From the NCBI GenBank assembly GCA_023144675.1, contig JAGLFE010000124.1, positions 1 to 30,427 of the forward strand: a stretch of DNA of 30,427 nucleotides, read 5' to 3'. Position 1 is the stretch's first letter; each line of letters starts with the position of its first letter. Position numbers and translations under genes: made by a program. The stretch comes from Thiomargarita sp. (GTDB lineage: Bacteria; Pseudomonadota; Gammaproteobacteria; Beggiatoales; Beggiatoaceae). Shown one piece after another: positions 2,656 through 25,613 of the stretch. The notes under the pieces are model-generated. The model was given only the letters and a program-made list of their open reading frames with translations, ran no database searches and had not been told where the DNA came from.

Positions 2656-3204
2656 TTATTGATGTTTTTGTTTATAAGTTTTTAACCAACGTAATACCCT
2701 TTTAAGTCCAAAATTTTCTTGCGCTTCACTTAAACTAGAATAAGAACGATTTTCAACAACTTTTGGGGCTGTTTTGGGACCGATACCAATTTTAAATGAA
2801 CATAATTCACTAATTGTTTTAGTATTAAGAAGAGTTAGGAAATCATCAATATCTTTTGGTTCTATGGTAATTTCATTTAATTTCGACAATGTACGTACTT
2901 GTTCAAATACTTTTTTTGATTCGGTAGGTTTAGAAGGGGAAATTAAAAATACCCATAGTTCTTTTAAACCCGCTAATTTTGCCGCTTCAAAAATATCTTC
3001 CCCACTTAATAAGCGATATTTATCGTCTTGCTCAGTTACATAAGCAACTGGTAAAACAAAATTGACTTGAGTATCTTTAAGATTTTCAGATATTTTACTA
3101 ATAACTTTGTTATTGGAAGCATTAGAATTTTCCTCTCCAATCTCTATTTGACCCATAGATAAGAGATAAGGTTGGGTTTTTATACTATCTCGAATTTTAC
3201 CCAT
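2656..3204 (-). CDS. ParB/Srx-like N-terminal domain protein with C-terminal helix-hairpin-helix; partner of the upstream REase-ParA
   Basis: Likely ATG at 3204 overlaps the upstream stop by 8 nt (182 aa). LPVAYVTEQDDKYRLLSGEDIFEAAKLAGLKELWVFLI resembles the ParB box region but without the RR motif; IGIGPKTAPKVVENR is HhH-like. Confidence 0.6.
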   Translation of the reverse strand: MGKIRDSIKTQPYLLSMGQIEIGEENSNASNNKVISKISENLKDTQVNFVLPVAYVTEQDDKYRLLSGEDIFEAAKLAGLKELWVFLISPSKPTESKKVFEQVRTLSKLNEITIEPKDIDDFLTLLNTKTISELCSFKIGIGPKTAPKVVENRSYSSLSEAQENFGLKRVLRWLKTYKQKHQ

Positions 3205-4492
3205 TTTTAGCCTCAAATTCATCAATCACTTCAACTAATTTGTCAGTTAAAAGTTCTATTGATTCTGCAACCTCTTTAGTAGTATCTCGACCATCTCTGA
3301 GTAATGAAATAGGAAGACGATCTCCAATAGCTTCTTTTACACCTACAACATTTTTTATTGCCTGGAAAATGGGAATATTTGGAAAGTAATCTTCAACAAG
3401 TTCTTTAACTGTTACATTTAGTTTTAGTTTACCAGTCATCATTGGTACAATGCCTAAAATATTTCCACGTTCTCCACTAGTATCTTCTTGTACTTCTCTA
3501 GCATTTTGAATAACATTTCTTATTCCATATACAGATAAATATTCCATTTGTGAAGGAATAATAAGATATCTAGCAGCGTATAAACCACTCCATGTTAATC
3601 TACTTTTTCCAGGAGCAGTATCAAAAATAACATATTGATAGTCTCCTGCTAGTTTTTCCAACCCTTTATTGAGATATTTCAATACTCTTGGGCTAGTCGG
3701 AAGACTTTCATCTGTTGTTTTATGACTAGCAGGTAGCACATCAACTCCAAACGAATTAGGAATGCGAGCAATGCAACTCTGATAATCTTTAATGTCTACA
3801 TCTCTATTTACAAATTTTATGAAATCTATAACTTCTAAACGCTCATCTAGGAACTTATATATTTCCTTTAGTTCTTCTATACTTGAAGCATTATTCATTT
3901 CCTCAGCCTTATTGACACCAATTGTCAAACTAGCATTTGCTTGGTCATCTAAATCAACTACCAAGACTTTATTACCTCTTTTGCTTAACTCGTAAGCAAT
4001 ATTAATGGCTAATGTTGTTTTACCAACACCGCCCTTAGAATTGTGAACTGCAATAGTACGCATTTTAACTCCTAAAGATGTTTTTATAAATTCAGCAATA
4101 GATTCTATATCAGTAATGTCCTTTATGTCAAACTGACTTTTTCGTTTAGTTTGTCCATTCTCAAAATGATAAATTTCTACTAAAAAAGGGTCTATTAAAA
4201 TTCCAATTTTAATTCCAGAATATCGTAGATATTTATCAAGTTGTTGCCGAGCAGTAGCATTATTTATACGGGTTTTTGCTGTTTTTACTTCAACTAAAAA
4301 TTTAATATTTTTGGAATAATCCTCTATAAAATAATCCACTTTATCTATTCTTGTGTTTGTTTTATACGGAACTTCAACTTTAAATTGTGGAATCTTTTTA
4401 GATTCAGAATATGGTGATACAAGATTTAATACTCTTTCAACTAAATGTAATTCCACATAACGTTCATTATTCCAATCTGAAGATAAATTCAA
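3197..4492 (-). CDS. Fusion of an HsdR_N-like PD-(D/E)XK nuclease domain and a ParA/Soj-family ATPase
   Basis: N-terminal about 140 aa: NERYVE...KVDY...LVEVK...QQLDKY (QxxxY motif). C-terminal: deviant Walker A KGGVGKTT, VLVVDLDDQAN, Walker B YVIFDTAPG. TTG start lies 1 nt after the upstream stop. Confidence 0.85.
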   Translation of the reverse strand: MNLSSDWNNERYVELHLVERVLNLVSPYSESKKIPQFKVEVPYKTNTRIDKVDYFIEDYSKNIKFLVEVKTAKTRINNATARQQLDKYLRYSGIKIGILIDPFLVEIYHFENGQTKRKSQFDIKDITDIESIAEFIKTSLGVKMRTIAVHNSKGGVGKTTLAINIAYELSKRGNKVLVVDLDDQANASLTIGVNKAEEMNNASSIEELKEIYKFLDERLEVIDFIKFVNRDVDIKDYQSCIARIPNSFGVDVLPASHKTTDESLPTSPRVLKYLNKGLEKLAGDYQYVIFDTAPGKSRLTWSGLYAARYLIIPSQMEYLSVYGIRNVIQNAREVQEDTSGERGNILGIVPMMTGKLKLNVTVKELVEDYFPNIPIFQAIKNVVGVKEAIGDRLPISLLRDGRDTTKEVAESIELLTDKLVEVIDEFEAKNG

Positions 4493-4493
4493 A

Positions 4494-4967
4494 TTATTTA
4501 CCTTTCATCAAACCAATTTCATCACTATATTCAAAAGGCAATTTTGGACCACCTTCTATTATATTTACGTTTCCCGATAATTTGTAATTAAATTTCTGAG
4601 TTAGAATATTGCTAAAACTACCCCAACCAAGAACATCCATTATATTACTACTGGTATCTAAATCAATAAAAGCTTCCCCATTAGCAGGAATAGTTATGGA
4701 TTTTTTCGTTTCCCCTTGGGTAAACACTTTATCATTCAGTTGGAGTTTATAATCCAAACTATTGATAGGTAAAGGAACTGGATTTGGATTTTCCAAACGC
4801 AATTGTAAAGAATAATCCTGTTGAGTTAAATTCATGTTTTTCACAGTAAGATTAGACAAGCTAACTTTTGGAGCCAATGGAGCTAATTGTTGTATCGGTA
4901 AATTACCATTACAAGCGGTTATTAGTAAGGCAATAACTAGGTATTGGATATGTTTGTATAGTTTCAT
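4494..4967 (-). CDS. LEA type 2 (WHy-domain) lipoprotein
   Basis: Lipobox LITAC; P.VSLSNL, LRLENPNPVPLPINSLDYKLQLN and LPFEY are typical of LEA_2. Confidence 0.85.
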   Translation of the reverse strand: MKLYKHIQYLVIALLITACNGNLPIQQLAPLAPKVSLSNLTVKNMNLTQQDYSLQLRLENPNPVPLPINSLDYKLQLNDKVFTQGETKKSITIPANGEAFIDLDTSSNIMDVLGWGSFSNILTQKFNYKLSGNVNIIEGGPKLPFEYSDEIGLMKGK

Positions 4968-5002
4968 AATTTTAATTGAAATATAGTTAAATTATTTATA
5001 AG

Positions 5003-5188
5003 TTAAAAAGCTATTGGTTGAGATTTTTTATTAGGTATCTCAATATATTTGAGACAAAAACCATATAATTCTGAGATTTCTTTAGCTGCGATATGAGATT
5101 TTGCTAAGTATTCATGAATTGATGTGCTTTCCTGAGACAATTTTATTTGAACTCGATGTCTTTCTTTCAATATTTCCGACTGGATCAT
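5003..5188 (-). CDS. Small putative antitoxin downstream of the PIN toxin
   Basis: 61 aa; ATGA overlap with the PIN gene stop. The role is inferred from coupling. Confidence 0.6.
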   Translation of the reverse strand: MIQSEILKERHRVQIKLSQESTSIHEYLAKSHIAAKEISELYGFCLKYIEIPNKKSQPIAF

Positions 5189-5658
5189 TCTTCATCCTCT
5201 TTAAATAATTCAAGTGGAGTAATAATTTCTGGTGTTGATAAACCAAGACGACCATTAATAACCTGAATATGTTTTCGTTTATTTGCATTAGCGAGATGAT
5301 TACAATTCCAAGTAAGAAGATAGTGAATATCGTAAAAGCTAGCATATGCAAGATGTACAGCATCACCTACGAGAGAACTTGGCATAATGTAATTAGAAAT
5401 ATAAAATTCAACAATCTGTTCAATATCATTATTCAACGGCAATAATGGAATATTTGAGATGAAATTTATAATTTCTTTTTTACGCAAATAATTTCCACTA
5501 TTTAATTCTTGAAATACAGCATCTGATATGAAAATATCATAACTGCTAGCCATTTCTGACCACCATTTTTTTGTAATTTCAATGAAAATTGCTATTGATT
5601 CACGTTGATCAAAGTAATAACTCGGAATACTAGAATCAAGATATACTTTTTCTTTCAT
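5185..5658 (-). CDS. PIN-domain (VapC-like) ribonuclease toxin
   Basis: 157 aa; VYLDSSIPS, GDAVHLAYA and LLTWNCNHLAN match the PIN-family acidic and conserved motifs. Confidence 0.85.
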   Translation of the reverse strand: MKEKVYLDSSIPSYYFDQRESIAIFIEITKKWWSEMASSYDIFISDAVFQELNSGNYLRKKEIINFISNIPLLPLNNDIEQIVEFYISNYIMPSSLVGDAVHLAYASFYDIHYLLTWNCNHLANANKRKHIQVINGRLGLSTPEIITPLELFKEDEE

Positions 5659-5699
5659 GGTTATTAAAGTTTATTTCAAATAACTCAGTATCTTTAACC

Positions 5700-6590
5700 T
5701 TAACTCAAACAAAGATTCAAAGCTTGTTCCCAATGAGGTAAATTGATTCCAAAAGTATTTACTAACTTTTTATTGGATAAAACTGAATAAGCGGGACGTT
5801 TTGCTGGAGTTGGATAGTCAACCGTTTTAATTGGTAACACTGTTGGTTGTTTATCAGATAATGCAACAATATTTTTAGCAAATTGATACCAACTGGTTTC
5901 GCCACCGCAAGTTATGTGATATAAACCTGCTAATTCTTCAATATTTGCTTGATAAAAAGGTGAATCCAATTTAGCAATAATATGAGAAGTTGCTTGAGCA
6001 ATCATACGACTCCAAGTAGGGCTACCAATTTGATCCGACACAACTTTTAATTCTTTTCTTTCTGTTGCTAAATGTTGCATGGTGAGTAAAAAATTTTTGC
6101 CGTGTAAACCATATACCCAAGCTGTCCGTAAAATCAAATATTTTCCACCAACCGCACTTACTGCCTGTTCACCAGCTAGTTTAGTTCGTCCATAAACACC
6201 AATTGGATTAACCGCATCTTCTTCCACATAAGCCCGATTTTGTTGTCCGTTAAATACATAATCAGTTGAATAATGAACCAATAAAGCATCTAATTCCAAA
6301 CAAACTTCAGCTAAAATACCAGGTGCAACTCCATTTATTTTATGAGCTAGTTCAGCTTCAGTTTCCGCTTTATCAACAGCCGTATAAGCCGCCGCATTGA
6401 TAATAATATTAGGTTTAATTTGTCTAATAACGCTACGAATACTATCGGGATTAGCTAAATCAATAGCATAATTAGCTAATTTTAGCTGTTGTCGGTCAGC
6501 ACCTATCATTTCACCTAATGGGGGCATACATTGGCATAATTCCCAACCAACTTGACCACTGGTACCAATAATTAATATTCTGTTGTGCAT
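5700..6590 (-). CDS. rfbD: dTDP-4-dehydrorhamnose reductase
   Basis: 296 aa; GTSGQVG Rossmann motif, NAAAYTAVDKAE, HYSTDYVF, YGRTK, DQIGSPT, TPAKRP.YS. Confidence 0.96.
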   Translation of the reverse strand: MHNRILIIGTSGQVGWELCQCMPPLGEMIGADRQQLKLANYAIDLANPDSIRSVIRQIKPNIIINAAAYTAVDKAETEAELAHKINGVAPGILAEVCLELDALLVHYSTDYVFNGQQNRAYVEEDAVNPIGVYGRTKLAGEQAVSAVGGKYLILRTAWVYGLHGKNFLLTMQHLATERKELKVVSDQIGSPTWSRMIAQATSHIIAKLDSPFYQANIEELAGLYHITCGGETSWYQFAKNIVALSDKQPTVLPIKTVDYPTPAKRPAYSVLSNKKLVNTFGINLPHWEQALNLCLS

Positions 6591-6894
6591 ATTTAATAAA
6601 AAACTGACATAAATTAAAGAAAATAATATTTTAATAGAATTAGATAGATAAAAAATTGGTAAGATTATACAAGCTTTGAATTATTTTTTAAACTGTTTAG
6701 AACAGATTAAGAGAGGAATTTTTTTAGGTTTAAAATCTTGTTAATCTATTATTAAATCCATTTCGTTTAAAATATTACAAAATATGGTATTAAAAGAGAT
6801 TGAAAAATAAAAATAATAACTCTTTTTTTAAAAGTAATAAAATAATAGCAAAGTAATTATTATTTAGATTTTTATTTAGCCATTACAAAAATTA

Positions 6895-6924
6895 ACTCCT
6901 AAAATAAAAATTATCTTCAGGAGT
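6895..6924 (-). terminator. Hairpin downstream of dsrE2, probable terminator
   Basis: ACTCCT...AGGAGT inverted repeat, extendable with G-U pairs, about 30 nt after the dsrE2 stop. Confidence 0.45.
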
Positions 6925-6952
6925 CAAAATATTTGATTTTACTAACTCTAAA

Positions 6953-7420
6953 TTAGATATATAAACAAATATCAGATTGTCCAGCAAATTCAAAGAAAGT
7001 AGCTGCACCACCATATTCAACTTCATCAATAAAATCTTTGGTATCAAATTCAAATAAATCAACTGTCATTTGACAAGCTACCATCCTTACTTCAGCTTCT
7101 ATGCAAAGATCACGTAGTTCTTCAACACTAGCTACCCCTTTTTTCTTCATGGTTTTTTTCATCATGCTAGACATCATTGCCTGCATACCTGGCAAGGTTT
7201 GCATAATTACCGGAATCGGCATTGGCATTGGCATAGCAGGATTACCTAAAGAGGTTACTTGCAAATTCAGCTTTTTCTTTAACACTTCTAAACCATAAAA
7301 AGTAAAGAAAATCTCGGTTTCATAACCTAAAGCAGCGGCTGTTGAAGCAAGAATAAAAGGTGGGTAAGCCCAATCGAGGCTTCCTTTTGTAGCAATAATT
7401 GCTAGTTTTTTTCCATCCAT
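6953..7420 (-). CDS. dsrE2: DsrE2-family sulfurtransferase (DsrE/DsrF/DrsH-like)
   Basis: KKLAIIATKGSLDWAYPPFILASTAAALG, FFTFYGL, and two Cys 10 residues apart ending in ACQMT. AGGAG lies 8 nt before ATG 7420, so the start is moved from 7429. Confidence 0.88.
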   Translation of the reverse strand: MDGKKLAIIATKGSLDWAYPPFILASTAAALGYETEIFFTFYGLEVLKKKLNLQVTSLGNPAMPMPMPIPVIMQTLPGMQAMMSSMMKKTMKKKGVASVEELRDLCIEAEVRMVACQMTVDLFEFDTKDFIDEVEYGGAATFFEFAGQSDICLYI

Positions 7421-7452
7421 ATAGTACACTCCTAATCTTTAAGTAAAATAAT

Positions 7453-7683
7453 TTATTTCTTTTTGATTAGAAATACGTATTTACCACCCTCTTCGGCTGA
7501 TTCTAATAATTCGTTGCCAGTTTGATTAGCAAAAGCTTCGAAATCTTTAACTGAACCAGGATCAGTAGCGATTATTCTTAAAACTTGACCGCTTTCCATG
7601 CCATTAAGTGTCTTTTTAGCACGCAAAATAGGTAAAGGGCAATTTAAACCTGAAGCATCTAATTCTTGATCAAAATTAGCCAT
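7453..7683 (-). CDS. tusA: Sulfur carrier protein TusA
   Basis: 76 aa; LDASGLNCPLP with Cys15, ATDPGSVKDF; AAGGAG RBS. Confidence 0.95.
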   Translation of the reverse strand: MANFDQELDASGLNCPLPILRAKKTLNGMESGQVLRIIATDPGSVKDFEAFANQTGNELLESAEEGGKYVFLIKKK

Positions 7684-7981
7684 ATTTTCTCCTTATGGAT
7701 ATTTCAAAATAATAATTTAATATAAATCTATATTTATTATAATTAATAACGCTAAAATATATAAATATTATTGAATTTAAAAATATAAATTTATACTATT
7801 AATATTAGCAAAAAATTTATTATATTATAATATTCTTTTTATTTACTAGATAAATTTATTATATTAATAATAGAAAATCAAATTTTTTCTTTGGCTAACA
7901 ATTTTTAATAAAATTTTTGAATTTAATCTGTAATGTTTAGCCATTTAATTTTTATTCCTTCATAAATAAATATATTTAAAT

Positions 7982-9653: not shown

Positions 9654-10226
9654 CTAGGCAAGTTCCGCCTTTAATTGAATTTTAAATTCATTTTCCATGA
9701 GTTTTGGAAACTCATCACAGAATGGCGTTTTAATCTCATCAAAATACCATGCTCTGTATCTTTCTAATCCATATAAAATAACATCACTCTCCAAAATATT
9801 TAAAATTTCTTCTGACCCCATATATGATTTATACTTTACTTGATTCTTGTTTTTTTCTTTACTGGTAACAAACAGTAAGTAAGTTTTAAAATGCCAAAAA
9901 TTGTCTTTTTCTATGCCTAATATTTTATATAAAAGTGCAAAACTATCTAAAAATTTCTGTTTTATCTTGGGCTTATAGTTACTTTTTATTTCTGAATTTT
10001 TATACTCAACAAAAACAATATATTCCCTTTCCAAATCAAAAAATATCATATCAGTCGTTGCCCAACTCGGATGATATTGTTTTGCGATTTTATCAAAGTT
10101 AAAAAACTTGTTTGTAAAATTACATAAAATGATATGATTTGTACTATCTTCAGAAATAACAGATAATTTATCAAAATGTTTTGAAAATTTATCTTCAAAT
10201 AGTTTTTTAATATCTGATATTGTCAT
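9654..10226 (-). CDS. Putative PD-(D/E)XK nuclease, partner of the upstream ABC ATPase
   Basis: 190 aa; TTDMIFF...FVEYKN gives a D...ExK motif; TAATG overlap with the ATPase stop. Confidence 0.6.
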   Translation of the reverse strand: MTISDIKKLFEDKFSKHFDKLSVISEDSTNHIILCNFTNKFFNFDKIAKQYHPSWATTDMIFFDLEREYIVFVEYKNSEIKSNYKPKIKQKFLDSFALLYKILGIEKDNFWHFKTYLLFVTSKEKNKNQVKYKSYMGSEEILNILESDVILYGLERYRAWYFDEIKTPFCDEFPKLMENEFKIQLKAELA

Positions 10227-11068
10227 TATGATAAACCTAGTTTCATTTTTCGCAGTTCTGCTAATGGCTCTGTCAATTTTTGAAAAATTGGGGATACATC
10301 CATTGTTACATCATGAATAACGGAATATTCATCTTCAGTTTTCTCAGCCAAATAAAAATTATTATTAATTTTTGCCTTATCAGCATAATATTTTAAGGCA
10401 TCTATCATATACGGACTATGAGAAGTTACTAAAACTTTTATTTTAGTTTTAACTAAAGTAACAATAAATTCTGCTAATAATAATTGCCATTTAGGGTGTA
10501 AATGTACTTCAGGCTCATCCAGTATTAAAACAGTACCTTCTTTAATACTTTCATTTAAAAGCAACATCTGGAAAAAACCAAACATCTTGATACCATTTGA
10601 GGTTTTATACATTTCAATAAGTAAATTCCCTTTTTTGTAAAAAATATCATCTTTTGATTTATCATAGTAAACTTCACCACCAATAATATTCTTGATGTAT
10701 TGAAATGATTTGCTATTTTTACTTTTTTTCTGTGGTTGAGAAATACGTAAAATCAAATCAGTTACTTCTATTGATAATGGAAAATTCAGTTTATTTTGTT
10801 GTAAAAGAATAGAAGTATTTTTTATGTAGTTGAATTTGTCCAGCAAGTATGGAGTCTCTATAAAAATAGGGAAATTTAAAATTTCATCATCATTAAGAGT
10901 CATATTTTCATGTTTTTTATTAAACAAAATGTATTCTCTAACTTTCTCAAAGAGAATCTTTCCAACTGTACTCTTACCCGTATCATTCTCTCCAGCAATA
11001 ACACTCAAACCTTCTATTTTAACAATAGCCTCTTTAATTATTCTAGTATTTTTTAATTGGAACTTCAT
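10226..11068 (-). CDS. Soluble ABC-type ATPase (AAA_15/AAA_21, defence-associated type)
   Basis: Walker A GENDTGKS, signature-like SNGIK, Walker B LILDEPEVHLHP, H-loop VTSHSP; no transmembrane segments. Start moved to ATG 11068 (MKFQLKN), 280 aa. Confidence 0.88.
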   Translation of the reverse strand: MKFQLKNTRIIKEAIVKIEGLSVIAGENDTGKSTVGKILFEKVREYILFNKKHENMTLNDDEILNFPIFIETPYLLDKFNYIKNTSILLQQNKLNFPLSIEVTDLILRISQPQKKSKNSKSFQYIKNIIGGEVYYDKSKDDIFYKKGNLLIEMYKTSNGIKMFGFFQMLLLNESIKEGTVLILDEPEVHLHPKWQLLLAEFIVTLVKTKIKVLVTSHSPYMIDALKYYADKAKINNNFYLAEKTEDEYSVIHDVTMDVSPIFQKLTEPLAELRKMKLGLS

Positions 11069-11215
11069 TTTCCACTTCCTTTGTGTAACATCAGTAAAGC
11101 AACTAGCTTTATATGTTTCTACCACACTCTTCAAACATATCTTCAATAAATAACTCACAAGCAATAATAGCTTCTTTCATAACTTTTTTTTTCATATATT
11201 AATCACTAATTACAC

Positions 11216-14414: not shown

Positions 14415-14744
14415 TTATAATGTGTTTTTCATTGTGCCTTTAGGAACAATGCTGGCAATGGATTGGCGTTGTATTTTAACTTCTGTATTAGGTACGAGTT
14501 CAAGCACTACAAAATTATCGCCTAAATTGGTTATTTTACCTAATAATCCGCCATTGGTAATAACCTCATCACCTTTTGCCAGCGAATCAACCATTTGTCG
14601 ATGTTCTTTAGCTCGTTTCGTTTGTGGACGAATTAAGAAAAAGTAAAAAACGATAAACAGAACCACTAACATAATTAAATTAAGAAAACCAGCATCTCCT
14701 GACGGTGCTGATTCAGCCCAAGCGTTTTGAATAAAAAATTCCAT
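14415..14744 (-). CDS. yajC: Preprotein translocase subunit YajC
   Basis: FYFFLIRPQ, KGDEVITNGGLLGKI; upstream of secD-secF; GAGG RBS. Confidence 0.96.
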   Translation of the reverse strand: MEFFIQNAWAESAPSGDAGFLNLIMLVVLFIVFYFFLIRPQTKRAKEHRQMVDSLAKGDEVITNGGLLGKITNLGDNFVVLELVPNTEVKIQRQSIASIVPKGTMKNTL

Positions 14745-14844
14745 AGTGATATCCTCGTAAAAAAGTAATTTAAAATTAAAAGTATTAAATATAATCTATT
14801 CTAATTAATTATCGGCATATTTTCGTTAATAATTTTAGTATTTA

Positions 14845-14866
14845 TAGTAAAAAAGATTTTTTACTA
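14845..14866. promoter_or_regulatory. 22-bp palindrome upstream of yajC, candidate operator
   Basis: TAGTAAAAAA-GA-TTTTTTACTA with perfect 10-bp arms, about 100 bp upstream of the yajC start. Confidence 0.3.
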
Positions 14867-15082
14867 ATATTATCAATACGATATTTGATTGTATTTAAAT
14901 AAAGCGAATTCAAGGGTAAATGGTTGTTAATTAGGATTTAGAATTTAAATAAGGATTGCAAGTATTTAGAATGAAAATTAAGCTTATAATTCCGAGAATG
15001 CTGAAAGTAGTTATTGAATTATAAAGGTAAAAATGCGATTTTAATTAATACTTTGGTCTAACTTTTCTTATATTTACGATGA

Positions 15083-15511
15083 TTAATTTTCGTCAAAAGT
15101 TTCTGTAATGAATCCTAACTTGGTAATTCCAACTTGTTGCGCAATAGACATAACTTGGGCTAATTGTTGATATTGCGTTTTTTTATCGGCTCGAAGATGC
15201 ACTTCAGGCTGTATTTTTTTTTGTGATTCTAATTGTAAAAGTTTCTCCAAATTTTGTAAGCTGATTTTTTTATCATTCCAAAACAAATCGCCTGTTTCAT
15301 CTAATATCAACGTAATTTGGCTAGGTGTTGCAAAATTTTCCTGATGTGATGTCTGCGGTATATCAACCTGTAATCCAGAAACCGTTAATAGAGGTGCGGT
15401 AATGATAAATAAAATAAGTAACACTAACATCACATCAATTAATGGAATCATATTAATTTCGGACATAGCTTGATTACTTCGCTCATCGAAATTATCAAAA
15501 TTTGTATTCAT
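15083..15511 (-). CDS. exbD: Biopolymer transport protein, ExbD/TolR family
   Basis: SEINMIPLIDVMLVLLILFIITAP, VHLRADK..YQ; likely ATG at 15511. Confidence 0.92.
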   Translation of the reverse strand: MNTNFDNFDERSNQAMSEINMIPLIDVMLVLLILFIITAPLLTVSGLQVDIPQTSHQENFATPSQITLILDETGDLFWNDKKISLQNLEKLLQLESQKKIQPEVHLRADKKTQYQQLAQVMSIAQQVGITKLGFITETFDEN

Positions 15512-15538
15512 AATAAGCAATTACAAAAAAAGCTAAAA

Positions 15539-15961
15539 TTAATTTTGCAACTCAATTTCAGAAAACCACTTAGAACCAAATAATCCACCTTCTTTTACTT
15601 TCCATTCGTTATAAAGTATAATTTTTTTTAATCGCCTTTTTAATTCGATTTCAGGCACTCGTCCTTTGCAAGCTTTTTTAAATAGTAGTAATGCTTGCGA
15701 AAACTCTTTTTTATCAACAACTCCATCATTAAGTGCAAATTGTTCAACAACATCTTTAACTTGTTCTTCTACTTCCCTTTCAATTACTAAATCTTTATTA
15801 GTAGCAAGTTGCTTGATAATCGCCATTCCTTCAGTAACAGTAAAACCTTTTTTAATGCCTTCTTCTAAAATACTTTTTTCCTCTTGACGATCAATATATT
15901 GGTCATCATAAACTTGTAACATAATATATTCAATAAATTGTTGTTTAATTTCTTCTATCAT
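15539..15961 (-). CDS. Hypothetical cytoplasmic protein with two acidic DxxxID/VD..E motifs (TerB-like or EF-hand-like)
   Basis: 140 aa with GAGG RBS; YDDQYIDRQEE and NDGVVDKKEF. The fold assignment is inference. Confidence 0.55.
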   Translation of the reverse strand: MIEEIKQQFIEYIMLQVYDDQYIDRQEEKSILEEGIKKGFTVTEGMAIIKQLATNKDLVIEREVEEQVKDVVEQFALNDGVVDKKEFSQALLLFKKACKGRVPEIELKRRLKKIILYNEWKVKEGGLFGSKWFSEIELQN

Positions 15962-16018
15962 AATTACCTCATTATTAAAATAAATACCGTAAAAAATTAA
16001 AGTGATTTAATCACTATA

Positions 16019-16570
16019 TTACTTAAATAAAACTTCTCTTTGAATGGTTGGATAAAAAACAAAATCTTCTATTTCTATTTCACCTTGATAAATCCAGCCA
16101 CGTTTTGCCCGAATACCAATTTCTGTTGTACCTGATAAAATCATTTCAAATGCGGAGTCTGGATTACCAATTAGGTTAAATAATTGGATTAAACGTGCGA
16201 TAGTTGGTAACTCATTTTTACCAACATAAACATCTAATAATTCCTCAGTAAACTTTTCATCCCCATTTGGACTGGCTGGAAAGGTAATTTCAGGAGGTTT
16301 AGTATTACCTAAGTAAATTTTTTGATGATTTCCATCTTTAAATACTAACTCAAAATTGGCATTTTTAAACTTTAATTCTGTTTTAGCTGAAGTACTAAAT
16401 TGTACGATAACTTCTGCTCGAAATTCTTGATCAGTTTGTTTAATTTTAATGCTTTTAATCGCTCTAATATCTATTTTATCCACAACTTCTGTAGAAATCG
16501 CATAACTTGTTTCTAAAAAGATACTGCAACTAATGGTTAATATAATAATAAATTTCAATATATAAGTCAT
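16019..16570 (-). CDS. Hypothetical exported or membrane-anchored beta-rich protein
   Basis: GGAG RBS before ATG 16570; N-terminal hydrophobic segment followed by a beta-strand-like pattern. Confidence 0.6.
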   Translation of the reverse strand: MTYILKFIIILTISCSIFLETSYAISTEVVDKIDIRAIKSIKIKQTDQEFRAEVIVQFSTSAKTELKFKNANFELVFKDGNHQKIYLGNTKPPEITFPASPNGDEKFTEELLDVYVGKNELPTIARLIQLFNLIGNPDSAFEMILSGTTEIGIRAKRGWIYQGEIEIEDFVFYPTIQREVLFK

Positions 16571-16617
16571 TTTTTTCTCCAAAATTATGTAAATTTAATT
16601 GTATCTAATTGATTTAA

Positions 16618-21593: not shown

Positions 21594-21601
21594 CTTTGAA
21601 A

Positions 21602-24406
21602 ATGAATAATTCCCAAACTAATAAACCCATAAAATGTTTAGGTTTAGAGTTTAAAAATAATGAAACTTGCCAGGACTATTTTTCAGCTTTACTAAAAGAA
21701 AAATTGGCAAACCCACAATTCAAAAATATTGCTGGTTTTCCCCAAGCAACAAACGAAACTATTTTAAATTTATCTACGCCGCCTTTTCACACATTTTGTC
21801 CCAATCCTTGGTTGCCTGATTTTTTAGAATCCCCACAAAATATTTCCGATGATTATTATCGTCAAGCTTTTATCGCTGATATTAGCGAGGGCAAGCATGA
21901 AACCAGTTACAATATCCATTCCTATCATACCAAAGTACCTTACAAAGCAATCATGCGCTACATTTTGCATTATACTGACCCAGGAGATATTATATTTGAT
22001 GGCTTTTGTGGAACTGGTATGACTGGAGTGGCAGCACAATTATGTGATAATCAGGCTGCTATTGAAAGTTTAAGTTATCAAGTTTCATCAACAGGGGAAA
22101 TTAAAAAACAGGTTGAAAAAGGCAACTATCTTGCTTGGGAAACATTCGCTAAACTAGGTAAAAGAAAAGCCATTTTAAGCGATTTATCCCCCATCGCCAC
22201 TCTAATTGCGCATCATTATAATAAACCTATTGAATCTGATAAATTTGAACAACAAGCACAGCAAGTTTTACAAACTATTGAAAATGAATGCAATTGGCTT
22301 TATCAAACTGTACATAGTTGTCGCAAAAATATGTCGGAATATGCCCATGAAATTGAGCAAATTATGTTGGGGGAAAAAGTTTGCCCTGATTGGCTGACTT
22401 TAGGGCGCATTCATCACACAATTTGGTCAGATGTATTTAATTGTCCCGAATGTAGGCAGGAATTAGTATTTTGGGAAGTAGCGGTCGATGTCAAGCAAAC
22501 TAAGATAAAAAAACGGTTTAATTGCCCCCATTGCAACGTTATTTTAACTAAATCCTTAATAACGCGGGTTTGGATAAAACGATTTGATCCTGTTTTACAG
22601 CAAACAATTCAACAAGTTAAACAAATTCCCGTAATAATAAATTACACAATTGCTAATATTATATTCCAAAAAAAGTTGGATAAATTTGATTTGATTCTGC
22701 TGGAAAAACTGAATAATAATCCTATTCCATATTGGTTTCCAACCGAAAAGCTACCTGATGGACAAAATACTTCGCAAGCTAAAAAATCGCACGGTTTTAC
22801 CCATTCCCATCATTTTTATACCCAACGTAATTTGTGGGTATTAAGCTGTTTGTATAAACATTGTTCCCAAGGTAATTTGTTACTATTATTTCAATCCATT
22901 GCCGTAACCCTGGCTTCTCGTTTGGTAAGATATAACTTTGGCAATCGAGGAAATAGTATTTTACCAGGGACTTTATATGTGCCTTCATTAGCAGCGGAAA
23001 ATAATATTTGTAAACTATTTGCTAATAAAGTAAAAAAAAATAATTATACCAATTGCGTAACAGAACATAATTTAATTAGCACCCAAAGCTCAACCAATCT
23101 TCAAATCTCGAATAATTCAATAGATTATATTTTCCTTGACCCGCCCTTTGGAGCAAATATTATGTATTCGGAACTTAATTTTTTATGGGAAGCTTGGTTA
23201 CAAATATTTACTAATAATCAACAAGAAGCCGTTATCAATAACCAACCAAGCAAAAATTTATCGCATTATCATAAAATAATTAAAGCTTGTTTCAGCGAAG
23301 CATTTCGTATTTTAAAACCACAGCGGTGGATAACGGTAGTATTTTCTAATACTCAAATTCAAATTTGGAATATTTTGCAAACCAGCTTACATGAGCTTGG
23401 TTTTATTATCGCTAACACCACTATTTTAGATAAAAAACAAGGTAGTTTTAAAGCCGTAACGACAACTACTGCGATTAAACAGAATATAGTTATTTCTGCT
23501 TATAAACCTGATTTTGTTTTAGAACAACAGTTTGAACTAATGCTTGATGCACAGGCTTGTTTGTGGGAATTTATTGAACAGCATCTTTGTTATTTACCTG
23601 TTATCAAGCTGCAAGAAAATGGGCTGGAATTTATTAACGAACGTGAAGCTAATATCTTGTATAATTGTGCCACCAATTATTTTGCTAAACACGGTGATTT
23701 TATTCCCATATCCAATCAGCAATTTCAAATAGAAGTAATAAATCATTTTGCAGAACGTGATAATATGATTTTTCGTGCAGATCAAGTTGCCGAATATGAT
23801 CAAAAGCGTAAAAAAATGCCTTTATTAACTTCGATGGAAATTATAATTTATGATGAACGTAGTGCTATTGATTGGTTGCAACATTTTTTAAAACAACAAC
23901 CTGCTACTCGTCAAAAAATTTATACGCAATTTGCCCAATTAATAGCTAATAATTGGAAAAAATATGAACCATTGATAGAATTAGATGGCTTATTGGCGTT
24001 AAATTTTATGCAATATGATGGTGAAATGACTGTTCCGAAACCAATTTATAATTACTTGACTCAACATTTTAATAGTTATCGCCATCTTTTAGCGAATGAT
24101 ATTATTTTAAAGCAACGAGCCGCTAAATGTTGGTATATTCCCAATACACAGCAAGCTAAAAAATTAGCCCAGTTGCGAGAAAAACAGTTATTAAAGGAGT
24201 TCAAACAATATCAAAAAACCGAACGGAAGTCTTTGAAAAAATTTCGCTTGGAAGCGATACGCTGTGGATTTAAACAGGCTTGGGCAGAAAAAAATTATCC
24301 TGTTATTATAGAAATGGCTGAAAAAATTCCTGAAGTTATTTTATATGCAGATGAAAAGTTATTGCAATTATGTGATTTAGCCCGTTTTCGTTTAATGAAA
24401 AAATAA
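21602..24406 (+). CDS. Large amino-DNA methyltransferase, BREX type III PglXI-like, orphan
   Basis: 934 aa from ATG 21602; motif I FDGFCGTGMTG, two CxxC pairs (CPEC, CPHC), motif IV DYIFLDPPFG. The termini (CLGLEF...CPNPW; KFRLEAIRCGFKQAW) resemble PglXI-family proteins as I recall them. Confidence 0.85.
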   Translation: MNNSQTNKPIKCLGLEFKNNETCQDYFSALLKEKLANPQFKNIAGFPQATNETILNLSTPPFHTFCPNPWLPDFLESPQNISDDYYRQAFIADISEGKHETSYNIHSYHTKVPYKAIMRYILHYTDPGDIIFDGFCGTGMTGVAAQLCDNQAAIESLSYQVSSTGEIKKQVEKGNYLAWETFAKLGKRKAILSDLSPIATLIAHHYNKPIESDKFEQQAQQVLQTIENECNWLYQTVHSCRKNMSEYAHEIEQIMLGEKVCPDWLTLGRIHHTIWSDVFNCPECRQELVFWEVAVDVKQTKIKKRFNCPHCNVILTKSLITRVWIKRFDPVLQQTIQQVKQIPVIINYTIANIIFQKKLDKFDLILLEKLNNNPIPYWFPTEKLPDGQNTSQAKKSHGFTHSHHFYTQRNLWVLSCLYKHCSQGNLLLLFQSIAVTLASRLVRYNFGNRGNSILPGTLYVPSLAAENNICKLFANKVKKNNYTNCVTEHNLISTQSSTNLQISNNSIDYIFLDPPFGANIMYSELNFLWEAWLQIFTNNQQEAVINNQPSKNLSHYHKIIKACFSEAFRILKPQRWITVVFSNTQIQIWNILQTSLHELGFIIANTTILDKKQGSFKAVTTTTAIKQNIVISAYKPDFVLEQQFELMLDAQACLWEFIEQHLCYLPVIKLQENGLEFINEREANILYNCATNYFAKHGDFIPISNQQFQIEVINHFAERDNMIFRADQVAEYDQKRKKMPLLTSMEIIIYDERSAIDWLQHFLKQQPATRQKIYTQFAQLIANNWKKYEPLIELDGLLALNFMQYDGEMTVPKPIYNYLTQHFNSYRHLLANDIILKQRAAKCWYIPNTQQAKKLAQLREKQLLKEFKQYQKTERKSLKKFRLEAIRCGFKQAWAEKNYPVIIEMAEKIPEVILYADEKLLQLCDLARFRLMKK

Positions 24407-24562
24407 ACTTTATAATTTTTATTTAGGATTTAAAGAAAAAAGTATTTTTCGTATAAAATAATAGCTTTTAATCATGAATAGATTTTTTATAAGCTGTTTA
24501 AACAAAAATAATCACCCCTAAAATTTAATAATTAGTATCCTTAATTGACCCAGAGATTTTTT

Positions 24563-24892
24563 ATGTTTGTTAAAAATATAGATTCTGACGAATTAGTAGA
24601 GTTGTTAGAAAAAAAACCTATACCTATTTTAATTGATGTGCGTACTCCACAAGAAATGGCGCAAGCATCAATTCCAAATGGAAAACCTATGCCATTAAAT
24701 ACTTTACCTTTGCGTTTGGACGAAATTTCTAAGGAAGAACAGGTGGTATTTTATTGTCGTACTGGCGCACGCTCGGCACAAGCATGTATGTATTTGGGTG
24801 ATCGAGGTTATGATAATGTTTACAATTTGTATGGCGGAATCATTAGTTGGGCAAAAAGTGGTTTGCCGATTCAACCGATGATATTTGACTAG
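24563..24892 (+). CDS. rhd: Single-domain rhodanese resembling the Allochromatium vinosum Rhd of the rhd-tusA-dsrE2 relay
   Basis: IDVRTPQE, active-site loop CRTGARS, NLYGGIISWAKSGLPI; ATG at 24563. Confidence 0.88.
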   Translation: MFVKNIDSDELVELLEKKPIPILIDVRTPQEMAQASIPNGKPMPLNTLPLRLDEISKEEQVVFYCRTGARSAQACMYLGDRGYDNVYNLYGGIISWAKSGLPIQPMIFD

Positions 24893-24910
24893 GAAATAAT
24901 GGCTTGGTTA

Positions 24911-25059
24911 TTTGTAGGTGGCAAGGCAGCCTCTTACAAAAATAGGAATTTTTTTTGAATTTCTCAATGCGTAAGTTCTAAAAAAATTAAAATACAGGCA
25001 TAAAAAAGTGAGCAAAAAATCTTACCCACTTTATGGAGAGAAGGTATAAAATCTACCTT
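24911..25059. repeat. Cluster of short inverted repeats between convergent genes (REP/MITE remnants or a bidirectional terminator)
   Basis: TTTGTAGGTGGC..GCCTCTTACAAA (24911-24940), CAATGCGTAAGTTCT (24965-24979) inside a 14/16 inverted repeat, AAAGTG..CACTTT and AAGGTA..TACCTT. Confidence 0.45.
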
Positions 25060-25079
25060 ATTATGCAAAAATAATCAAA

Positions 25080-25613
25080 TTATTCTGTTTCAGAAACTGC
25101 TGCTATTTCTTCTTCTTCAGAATAAGTAATCCATAAATAAGCTAATCCGCCACCAGCAACAGCTAAAACAATAGGGGCTGCAACTAAAGTAGCTGCTCCA
25201 GCTAATGCACCACCACCAACTACACTACCAATAGAAACTAAACCAGCAGTACTTAATCCTTCCATTACTACTGCACCGATAGCGGCTAATGTACCAACAC
25301 CAGCACCAGTATAAGTACCAATTTGAGCGGCATCACAAGCTTTTTGTTGGTTTTCACAATCGGTAAATATCTTATCATTCATAACTTTTGCAGTTGCAGC
25401 TCCTAAACCAGCTCCAACAACAGGACTTGCAATGGCAGCAGCCATACCAGCGGCAGTTGCACCAGCAATCATTGCAGCTCCTTCGGCAGCCATAACACCT
25501 TCAGCAACAACAGCACTACCAGCTGCAACACTAGCAGTAGCAGGTTCTGCATAACTAGAAGTCATGTAAGACATAGAAATAGCCAAAGTACCAATTACCA
25601 ATAATTTCTTCAT
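25080..25613 (-). CDS. Exported Ala/Gly-rich membrane protein with glycine-zipper-like segments
   Basis: Signal peptide MKKLLVIGTLAISMSYMTSSYA; two long GxxxG/AxxxA hydrophobic tracts around a C-x6-C polar linker; acidic tail SEEEEIAAVSETE. Confidence 0.75.
   Translation of the reverse strand: MKKLLVIGTLAISMSYMTSSYAEPATASVAAGSAVVAEGVMAAEGAAMIAGATAAGMAAAIASPVVGAGLGAATAKVMNDKIFTDCENQQKACDAAQIGTYTGAGVGTLAAIGAVVMEGLSTAGLVSIGSVVGGGALAGAATLVAAPIVLAVAGGGLAYLWITYSEEEEIAAVSETE

Follow-up and report, generated by a model that had tools for sequence, protein, structure and literature searches.

ParA ATPases have recently been surveyed for their part in immunity, and effector-ParAB systems, defined there by computation, were predicted to be immune systems, with no experiment (Li, Burroughs and Aravind, bioRxiv 10.64898/2026.10.19.760177, 22 October 2026). 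In these systems ParA and ParB are encoded in one operon, and an effector lies N-terminal to ParA, which is mostly a restriction endonuclease (REase) domain and in other cases a HEPN, caspase, TOPRIM or phosphoesterase domain. The ParB is predicted to be inactive, with a C-terminal helix-hairpin-helix (HhH) or HeH replacing the helix-turn-helix (HTH), and the ParA belongs to the ConB1 clade, which has a conserved Val in Walker A. Effector-ParAB systems are significantly enriched in multicellular bacteria such as cyanobacteria, and the authors proposed that ParB recognises invader DNA and recruits ParA as a static coat, the effector being a back-up suicide arm (Li et al., 2026). Here, we describe a gene pair of this architecture in a stretch of 30,427 nucleotides from Thiomargarita sp. 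(Beggiatoaceae; contig JAGLFE010000124.1 of assembly GCA_023144675.1), hereafter the window, in which the gene for a fusion of a predicted PD-(D/E)XK nuclease domain and a ParA is followed by the gene for a ParB-like partner.

The window pair resembles the effector-ParAB systems in its operonic coupling, its N-terminal effector of the REase fold, its predicted inactive ParB, the C-terminal HhH and the occurrence of its family in multicellular bacteria such as cyanobacteria. With a probability of about 0.65, we consider it to be a conflict system of the effector-ParAB type, in which the parts of a partition system form a module for immunity or cell suicide on the chromosome. This reading is preferred over partition because the head is swappable, broken copies are frequent, toxin-antitoxin (TA) cassettes take the place of the module at the corresponding site in Nostoc, and restriction-modification (RM), TA or Lamassu genes are found in the neighbourhood of many loci of the family. 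The same predicted role was reached by an independent computational classification (Li et al., 2026), which we count in its favour. A sequence-only reading of the window had proposed an undescribed system of defence or DNA surveillance; a defence or conflict role is indeed the best-supported one, above all by the exchange of heads, and it is the word undescribed that had to be given up in view of the preprint.

The features of the pair are listed below with their positions in the window.

2656..3204, minus strand: gene of the ParB-like partner (182 aa), with its ATG at 3204, an N-terminal domain of the ParB/Srx fold and a C-terminal HhH
3197..3204, minus strand: overlap of 8 nt between the stop of the fusion and the start of the partner, read from the sequence, with GAGG 5 nt before the partner ATG
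3197..4492, minus strand: gene of the nuclease-ParA fusion (effector-ParA, 431 aa), with a TTG start at 4492 and the stop codon at 3197-3199, based on the open reading frame (ORF) and its translation, Pfam and homologues
4073..4492, minus strand: predicted PD-(D/E)XK head of HSDR_N_2 type, fusion residues 1-140, based on HSDR_N_2/PDDEXK_3 matches, conserved columns and the AlphaFold secondary structure
3197..4063, minus strand: ParA/Soj-type ATPase domain, fusion residues 144-431, based on Foldseek and invariant motifs
4061..4073, minus strand: candidate internal start at the domain junction, with AGGAG at 4073-4069, a spacer of 5 nt and an in-frame ATG (Met144) at 4063-4061

The head, the ParA domain and the partner

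The motifs K51-V-D53, E68-V-K70 and Q84xxxY88 can be read directly from the translation of the head, and E10, D53, E68, K70, Q84 and Y88 are its predicted catalytic residues. When the entire fusion was compared with Pfam, AAA_31 was matched with an E-value of 8e-37 and HSDR_N_2 with a sub-threshold one of 8e-5. When scanned by itself, the head reached 25.9 bits for HSDR_N_2 against a cut-off of 25, and among the family members, also with their heads scanned alone, HSDR_N_2 was found in 20/20 and PDDEXK_3 in 17/20. In the AlphaFold model of the fusion (pLDDT 83.4, pTM 0.70), residues 10-100 of the head form an alpha-beta-beta-beta-alpha-beta core, with helices at 10-25 and 79-92 and strands at 32-43, 46-58, 63-69 and 96-100, a secondary structure that fits the PD-(D/E)XK core. 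With this core and the D...(D/E)xK signature, the head is predicted to be a domain of the PD-(D/E)XK nuclease superfamily, and the fusion of such a domain to an intact ParA, which the sequence-only reading had recognised from the motifs, is borne out by the Pfam scans and the model. The Foldseek search was made with the entire fusion, and its matches are dominated by the ParA domain. Among PDB sequences, the best match of the head profile was Cas4 (4r5q), at a marginal E-value of 0.22, with the ExK and QxxxY motifs aligned.

The predicted catalytic residues are also conserved. Three alignments were compared, and none of them shows any variation at E68 or K70; D53 has no exception in one of them and a conservation of at least 90% in each of the two others, and E10, Q84 and Y88 are conserved as well. 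In the alignment of 30 sequences, the invariant positions are E68, K70, R82, Q84, Y88 and D58 together with all of Walker A, D180/D182 and D291, and conservation reaches at least 90% at E10 and D53. Such columns show the predicted catalytic residues of the head to be under selection, and it is from their conservation that nuclease activity is predicted.

The ParA part of the fusion contains KGGVGKTT (153-160), DLDDQ (180-184) and DTAPG (291-295), and hence the signature Lys153, the Walker A residue K158, D180/D182 and the Walker B residue D291. V156 within KGGVGKT is invariant in the alignment of 30 sequences, and classical ParAs have the same motif. The top Foldseek matches are Soj of H. pylori (6iub), Soj of T. 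thermophilus (2bek) and McdA (6nop), with E-values of 1e-15 to 1e-14 and target-normalised TM-scores of about 0.8; Vibrio ParA2 and P1-type structures are also among the fold matches of the fusion. The domain is Soj-like and is predicted to be ATPase-competent.

At the junction of the two domains, Met144 is invariant in 30 homologues, and the ParA genes of the natural split forms described below begin exactly at this position. GGAG stands before Met144 in only about 9/28 fused genes. A promoter-like TTGACA-18-TAGAAT at 4131-4102 precedes Met144 and is the best such match of the region; in the promoter and terminator scans of the module region, no score exceeded those of shuffled controls. A ParA-only isoform that starts from Met144 is plausible.

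The start of the partner could be fixed at the ATG at 3204 by comparison with homologues, and with the fusion stop at 3197-3199 this gives the 8-nt overlap that had been noted from the sequence alone. The arrangement shows, as far as sequence can, that the two genes are translationally coupled. At nearly all of the loci that were inspected, the gene that follows ParA encodes a homologous partner. The AlphaFold model of the window's partner (pLDDT 75.7) matches the N-terminal and DNA-binding regions of KorB, of Myxococcus and Caulobacter ParB and of Noc (Foldseek E-values of 7e-6 to 4e-5, probability 1.0). The CTP-binding motif GxxRxxA reads G68-E-D-I-F-E-A74 in the window's partner, and an arginine at this position is not conserved among 14 homologues. 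The C-terminal HhH is seen in the hairpin GIGPKTAP at residues 139-146. No HhH family of Pfam was matched by the window's partner itself at an E-value of 0.01; HhH families are matched by its homologues, two of which have a duplicated HhH tail and match several of them. The ParB-like fold with an HhH, as first proposed, thus agrees with both model and homologues, and the partner is predicted to be a disabled ParB fold without the CTPase arginines, which carries an HhH tail where an HTH is usual.

In one clade the ParB-like partner is absent, and a ParA-only paralogue comes after the fusion instead (L113, L095, L185, L187-L189). At the L113 locus (4083-7693), a GspK-like protein with an HHH_3 motif is encoded after the ParA-only paralogue, and dnaA lies 3 kb downstream.

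Exchange of the head and sites of the module

One cyanobacterial genome has an HEPN_Swt1 RNase domain (E-value 2.7e-34) in place of the nuclease head, at the psaB site discussed below; the ParA fused to this domain is 43% identical to that of the window, and a homologous HhH partner follows. In addition, split forms of three genes occur, composed of a head gene, then a ParA-only gene and then the partner. The head gene of the split forms may stand alone (142-167 aa), or the head may be fused behind a TIR domain (E-value 1.8e-13) in some loci and behind a CHAT peptidase domain in others. HEPN domains are RNases, TIR domains are NADases and CHAT domains are peptidases, and a single position that accommodates nucleases, RNases, NADases and caspase-like domains is the usual mark of the toxic effectors of conflict systems. 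The varied heads on one orthologous pair of ParA and partner therefore point to a toxic effector, and they are the strongest functional signal found here. Since the heads at, or joined to, the head position are of unrelated chemistry, the output is probably generic damage to the cell and not sequence-specific restriction.

On the conflict reading, the module might work as follows. ATP-bound ParA dimers would bind DNA of any sequence, in the manner of Soj, and the ParB-like partner would read a DNA feature through its HhH tail, probably a structure associated with the invader or with replication. Once on this feature, the partner would engage ParA, and the assembly on the recognised DNA would pair two nuclease heads and thus activate them, with damage to the infected cell, in the form of abortive infection or dormancy, as the most likely result. 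The ParA-only isoform from Met144 may dilute or gate the form that bears the nuclease. In the sequence-only reading, it was also suggested that the nuclease may be directed by ParA to complexes of plasmid ParB with parS, which fits poorly because HEPN, TIR and CHAT heads do not cut DNA.

The sites of the module are variable in content. Broken copies were found on long contigs in several Microcoleus and Nostoc strains, and in some genomes, as well as in metagenome contigs, what is left after psaB is a truncated remnant of the head. Two Nostoc genomes have homologous flanks, which are the 3' end of psaB and a DNA methylase gene, and different content between them. The interval of 2.84 kb in one of them (L081, 5926-8764) holds the module, a 103-aa ORF and a DUF7689 gene, and the interval of 1.59 kb in the other (XA013; L146, 192-1781) holds MazF-like, DUF433-like and DUF5615-like cassettes and no module. 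The interval from psaB to the methylase gene in Nostoc looks like a hot spot of cassette swapping. Neither integrase nor repeats nor target duplications were seen in the module repeat search and the comparison of the Nostoc sites.

Genes of conflict systems are also found around the family. The second Parabeggiatoa copy (L084) is flanked by four MmeI-type IIG RM genes; PIN, YoeB and AAA_21-DUF4276 genes are neighbours at one separate locus, HicAB, PIN and methylase genes at another, and ParE/RelB at a further one. Lamassu, NsnA, PD-T4-2_A and Csx1 are among the 67 neighbours of nine metagenome loci. As evidence for a conflict role, the neighbourhoods are supportive only. One of the split forms (L110, 1727-3803), with a 142-aa head, a 294-aa ParA and a 246-aa partner that has two HhH units, is located inside the NADH dehydrogenase operon, between nuoJ/nuoK and nuoL, and the contig has a fused copy as well, 4 kb further on.

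The same observations bear on another reading, according to which the pair is a selfish, TA-like addiction cassette, in which a nuclease-ParA toxin is restrained by the partner and loss of the cassette kills the cell, with no net benefit for the host. Such a cassette would explain why a toxin-like gene is followed by a small partner under translational coupling, why the hot spot is common to the module and classical TA cassettes, why a split copy can sit within the conserved nuo operon, and why TA genes flank many copies. However, the frequent decay of copies indicates that loss is tolerated, the hallmarks of mobility sought at the sites were not seen, and an ATPase, a DNA binder and swappable effectors together are richer than an addiction module needs. 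Addiction and defence by abortive infection overlap, and computation can hardly tell one from the other; we regard a purely selfish cassette as quite unlikely.

Distribution and chromosomal context

Homologues of the full-length fusion, with 44-75% identity at 100% coverage, are present in Parabeggiatoa, Achromatium, Thiomargarita and many filamentous cyanobacteria, among them Microcoleus, Nostoc, Anabaena, Aphanizomenon, Trichocoleus, Phormidium and Floridanema, so that the pairs of filamentous cyanobacteria mentioned in the sequence-only reading do have counterparts in homologous loci. The family of the head is very narrow, since its profile matches only 28 representatives among 1.84 billion cluster representatives. 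The fusion family occurs in 14/55 Beggiatoaceae genomes (10/27 genera) and in 5/301 sampled cyanobacterial genomes, the latter in a survey that scored only five candidates per genome. In the tree, there are two old Beggiatoaceae clades, one of which holds the window member, whereas the second is joined to the cyanobacterial clade with a support of 99/98; this is consistent with a transfer between the two phyla, in either direction. No full-length fusion member was found on 72,556 plasmids or in 50,697 phage records, and no relatives of the head or the partner were found in IMG/VR; plasmid partition and phage carriage were rejected on this basis. The repeat search within 7 kb of the module gave only short chance matches and no parS-like or centromere-like repeat array.

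The cyanobacterial loci have a near-constant position. The module is located directly after psaA-psaB in 9/9 loci from cyanobacterial genomes and in 11/12 informative loci from metagenomes, that is, in 20/21 informative loci that are not independent of one another. A CHAT-type copy (L151) lies 1.3 kb after psaE. A single ancient insertion, inherited thereafter, accounts for the psaB cases but not for the psaE case.

This position and the nature of the hosts suggest a further reading, in which the pair would do housekeeping work at the nucleoid of bacteria that are large, polyploid and filamentous, where it would organise, space or prune chromosome copies and have no part in immunity. Its strictly chromosomal occurrence, with no member found on the plasmids, phages and viral contigs searched, its fixed place after psaA-psaB, its high conservation and the operon-like packing with housekeeping genes in the window all agree with such a system, as does its restriction to hosts that are without exception large and polyploid, namely Beggiatoaceae, Achromatium, Thiomargarita and filamentous cyanobacteria. 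However, the module is patchy even inside genera, close relatives have broken or truncated copies, TA cassettes take its place at the same site, and the HEPN swap and the TIR and CHAT additions are hard to square with chromosome handling, and we therefore hold this to be unlikely on the whole. Improbable, and somewhat more so, is a chromosome-handling device of giant or filamentous polyploids, in which chromosome copies that are surplus or damaged would be pruned or processed by a nuclease that travels with a nucleoid-riding Soj-like ATPase and is controlled by the partner; if that were true, the psaA-psaB position would reflect coupling to a highly expressed core operon.

Several points weigh against the pair being a conflict system. 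The position after psaA-psaB is kept across cyanobacterial orders, as for a stable resident rather than a mobile cassette, and the identity of 44-50% over the full length across phyla is not that of a fast-evolving protein. Most neighbours of the family loci are housekeeping genes, and the census of neighbours, made in TA-rich genomes, has no matched background for TA and RM density, so that no statistical enrichment is claimed. In the window, the module is tightly packed between a LEA_2-family gene and argH with no terminator-like site between; the fusion starts 1 nt past the stop of the upstream LEA_2 gene, and argH begins 40 nt beyond the partner gene. The active-site geometry of the head rests on sequence and secondary structure only, and no experimental study of any family member was found in the literature. 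Finally, no component of a system model in PADLOC-DB v2.0 was matched over its full length: the fusion gave matches at the level of Walker A only (PDC-M28B, E-value 5.6e-8 over 42 residues; mad8, E-value 3.3e-5), and the partner gave none.

As to the rest of the window and its genome, the annotated parts of the window contain neither dnaA nor any replicon or transposase gene (ORFs at 14415-16582 and 24545-25613 are outside the scan), and the initial statement that no oriC-type, replicon or mobile genes are nearby holds for these parts. The genome encodes the fusion once, and on another contig (C123) there is a canonical ParA gene next to one for ParB_N. No empty site was identified in relatives: around the LEA_2 homologues of 40 related genomes, none of the neighbours is one found in the window, and synteny around LEA_2 is uninformative for such a comparison. 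The scan of genome contigs with the full-length alignment relied on generic Walker A patterns and gave ordinary ParAs at 25-33% identity, so it is uninformative for context.

Other genes of possible defence systems are present in the window. At 3-1070 on the minus strand, 1.6 kb from the module, a type IIG restriction-methyltransferase is cut by the window end, so that its N-terminal third is present (PADLOC REase_MTase_IIG, E-value 4.4e-119). At 9654-11164 on the minus strand, a compact AAA_21/AAA_15 ATPase (PADLOC HEC-02A, E-value 1.4e-30) is coupled to a 190-aa protein without a Pfam match, and this pair among housekeeping genes is a candidate for a separate defence pair. At 21596-24406 on the plus strand, a full-length PglXI-type (BREX-like) methyltransferase is encoded (PADLOC PglX|PglXI, 1091 bits), with no other BREX genes among the neighbours scanned.

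Comparison with known systems

Chromosomal ParABS systems of type Ib are similar to the window pair in having a ParA with a deviant Walker A and the signature lysine, a Soj-like fold, and a ParB/Srx-fold partner encoded directly downstream. In contrast to them, ParA here bears a nuclease head, the partner is devoid of the GERRxRA arginines and of the HTH and ends in an HhH tail, parS-like repeats are not found nearby, the distribution is patchy and not near-universal, and the genome has a separate canonical parAB. The type Ia ParAs, such as P1 ParA and F SopA, have a comparable length of about 400 aa and an extra N-terminal domain related to DNA. However, their extension is a regulatory HTH and they are borne by plasmids or phages, whereas the extension here is a catalytic-looking PD-(D/E)XK domain and the family was not found on the 72,556 plasmids.

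These likenesses could be taken to mean that the pair truly partitions or positions a replicon or a cargo, as type Ia ParABS or McdAB-like systems do, with an N-terminal domain that only binds or regulates like the HTH of P1 ParA. The fold of the ParA domain, which is closest to Soj and McdA, the order of ParA and then a ParB-like gene, one homologue 3 kb from dnaA and CO2-uptake genes near one Microcoleus copy are in line with this. Against it, a mere binding module needs no invariant catalytic residues, and ordinary partition is disfavoured because a canonical parAB is located elsewhere in the genome, the ParB arginines are lost, there is no parS-like or centromere-like array, the distribution of the family is patchy, and searches of plasmids and phages yielded no member. 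Consequently, we consider a true partition or positioning role highly improbable, in agreement with the doubt first expressed about ordinary partition. Among the particular candidates, classical ParABS was rejected on the missing arginines of the partner, its HhH instead of an HTH and the lack of a repeat array within 7 kb, and the partition locus of the replicon itself on the canonical ParA and ParB of C123, the presence of the family in only 14/55 genomes and the lack of a full-length member among the plasmids searched. Carboxysome positioning of the McdAB type was rejected as well, since the partner is folded and ParB-like, not disordered like McdB, and the head keeps its catalytic residues.

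PARIS (AriAB), Septu (PtuAB), Gabija (GajAB) and OLD are alike in combining an NTPase sensor or switch with a nuclease effector and in their co-location with TA and RM genes. Their ATPases are of the ABC or OLD type and are combined with TOPRIM or HNH, whereas here a ParA of the SIMIBI class is accompanied by a ParB-like protein as a third element.

The closest relatives remain the effector-ParAB systems. Beggiatoaceae, Achromatium, the psaAB-linked position, the split forms with TIR and the internal start at the junction are features found here that the preprint does not mention (Li et al., 2026), and the Beggiatoaceae members and the near-constant cyanobacterial position after psaA-psaB are new in this analysis. 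If the prediction holds, the machinery of ParA and ParB would have been rebuilt as a switch for immunity or suicide to which multicellular and giant bacteria are partial, and the biochemistry of chromosome segregation would be linked to abortive infection. The window pair, a compact and intact member from a non-photosynthetic lineage, is a convenient construct, and the catalytic residues, the possible ParA-only isoform, the natural split and head-swapped variants and the conserved insertion site next to psaAB offer handles for comparison. By the sameness of its architecture, the pair would be a member of the effector-ParAB systems from a new lineage.

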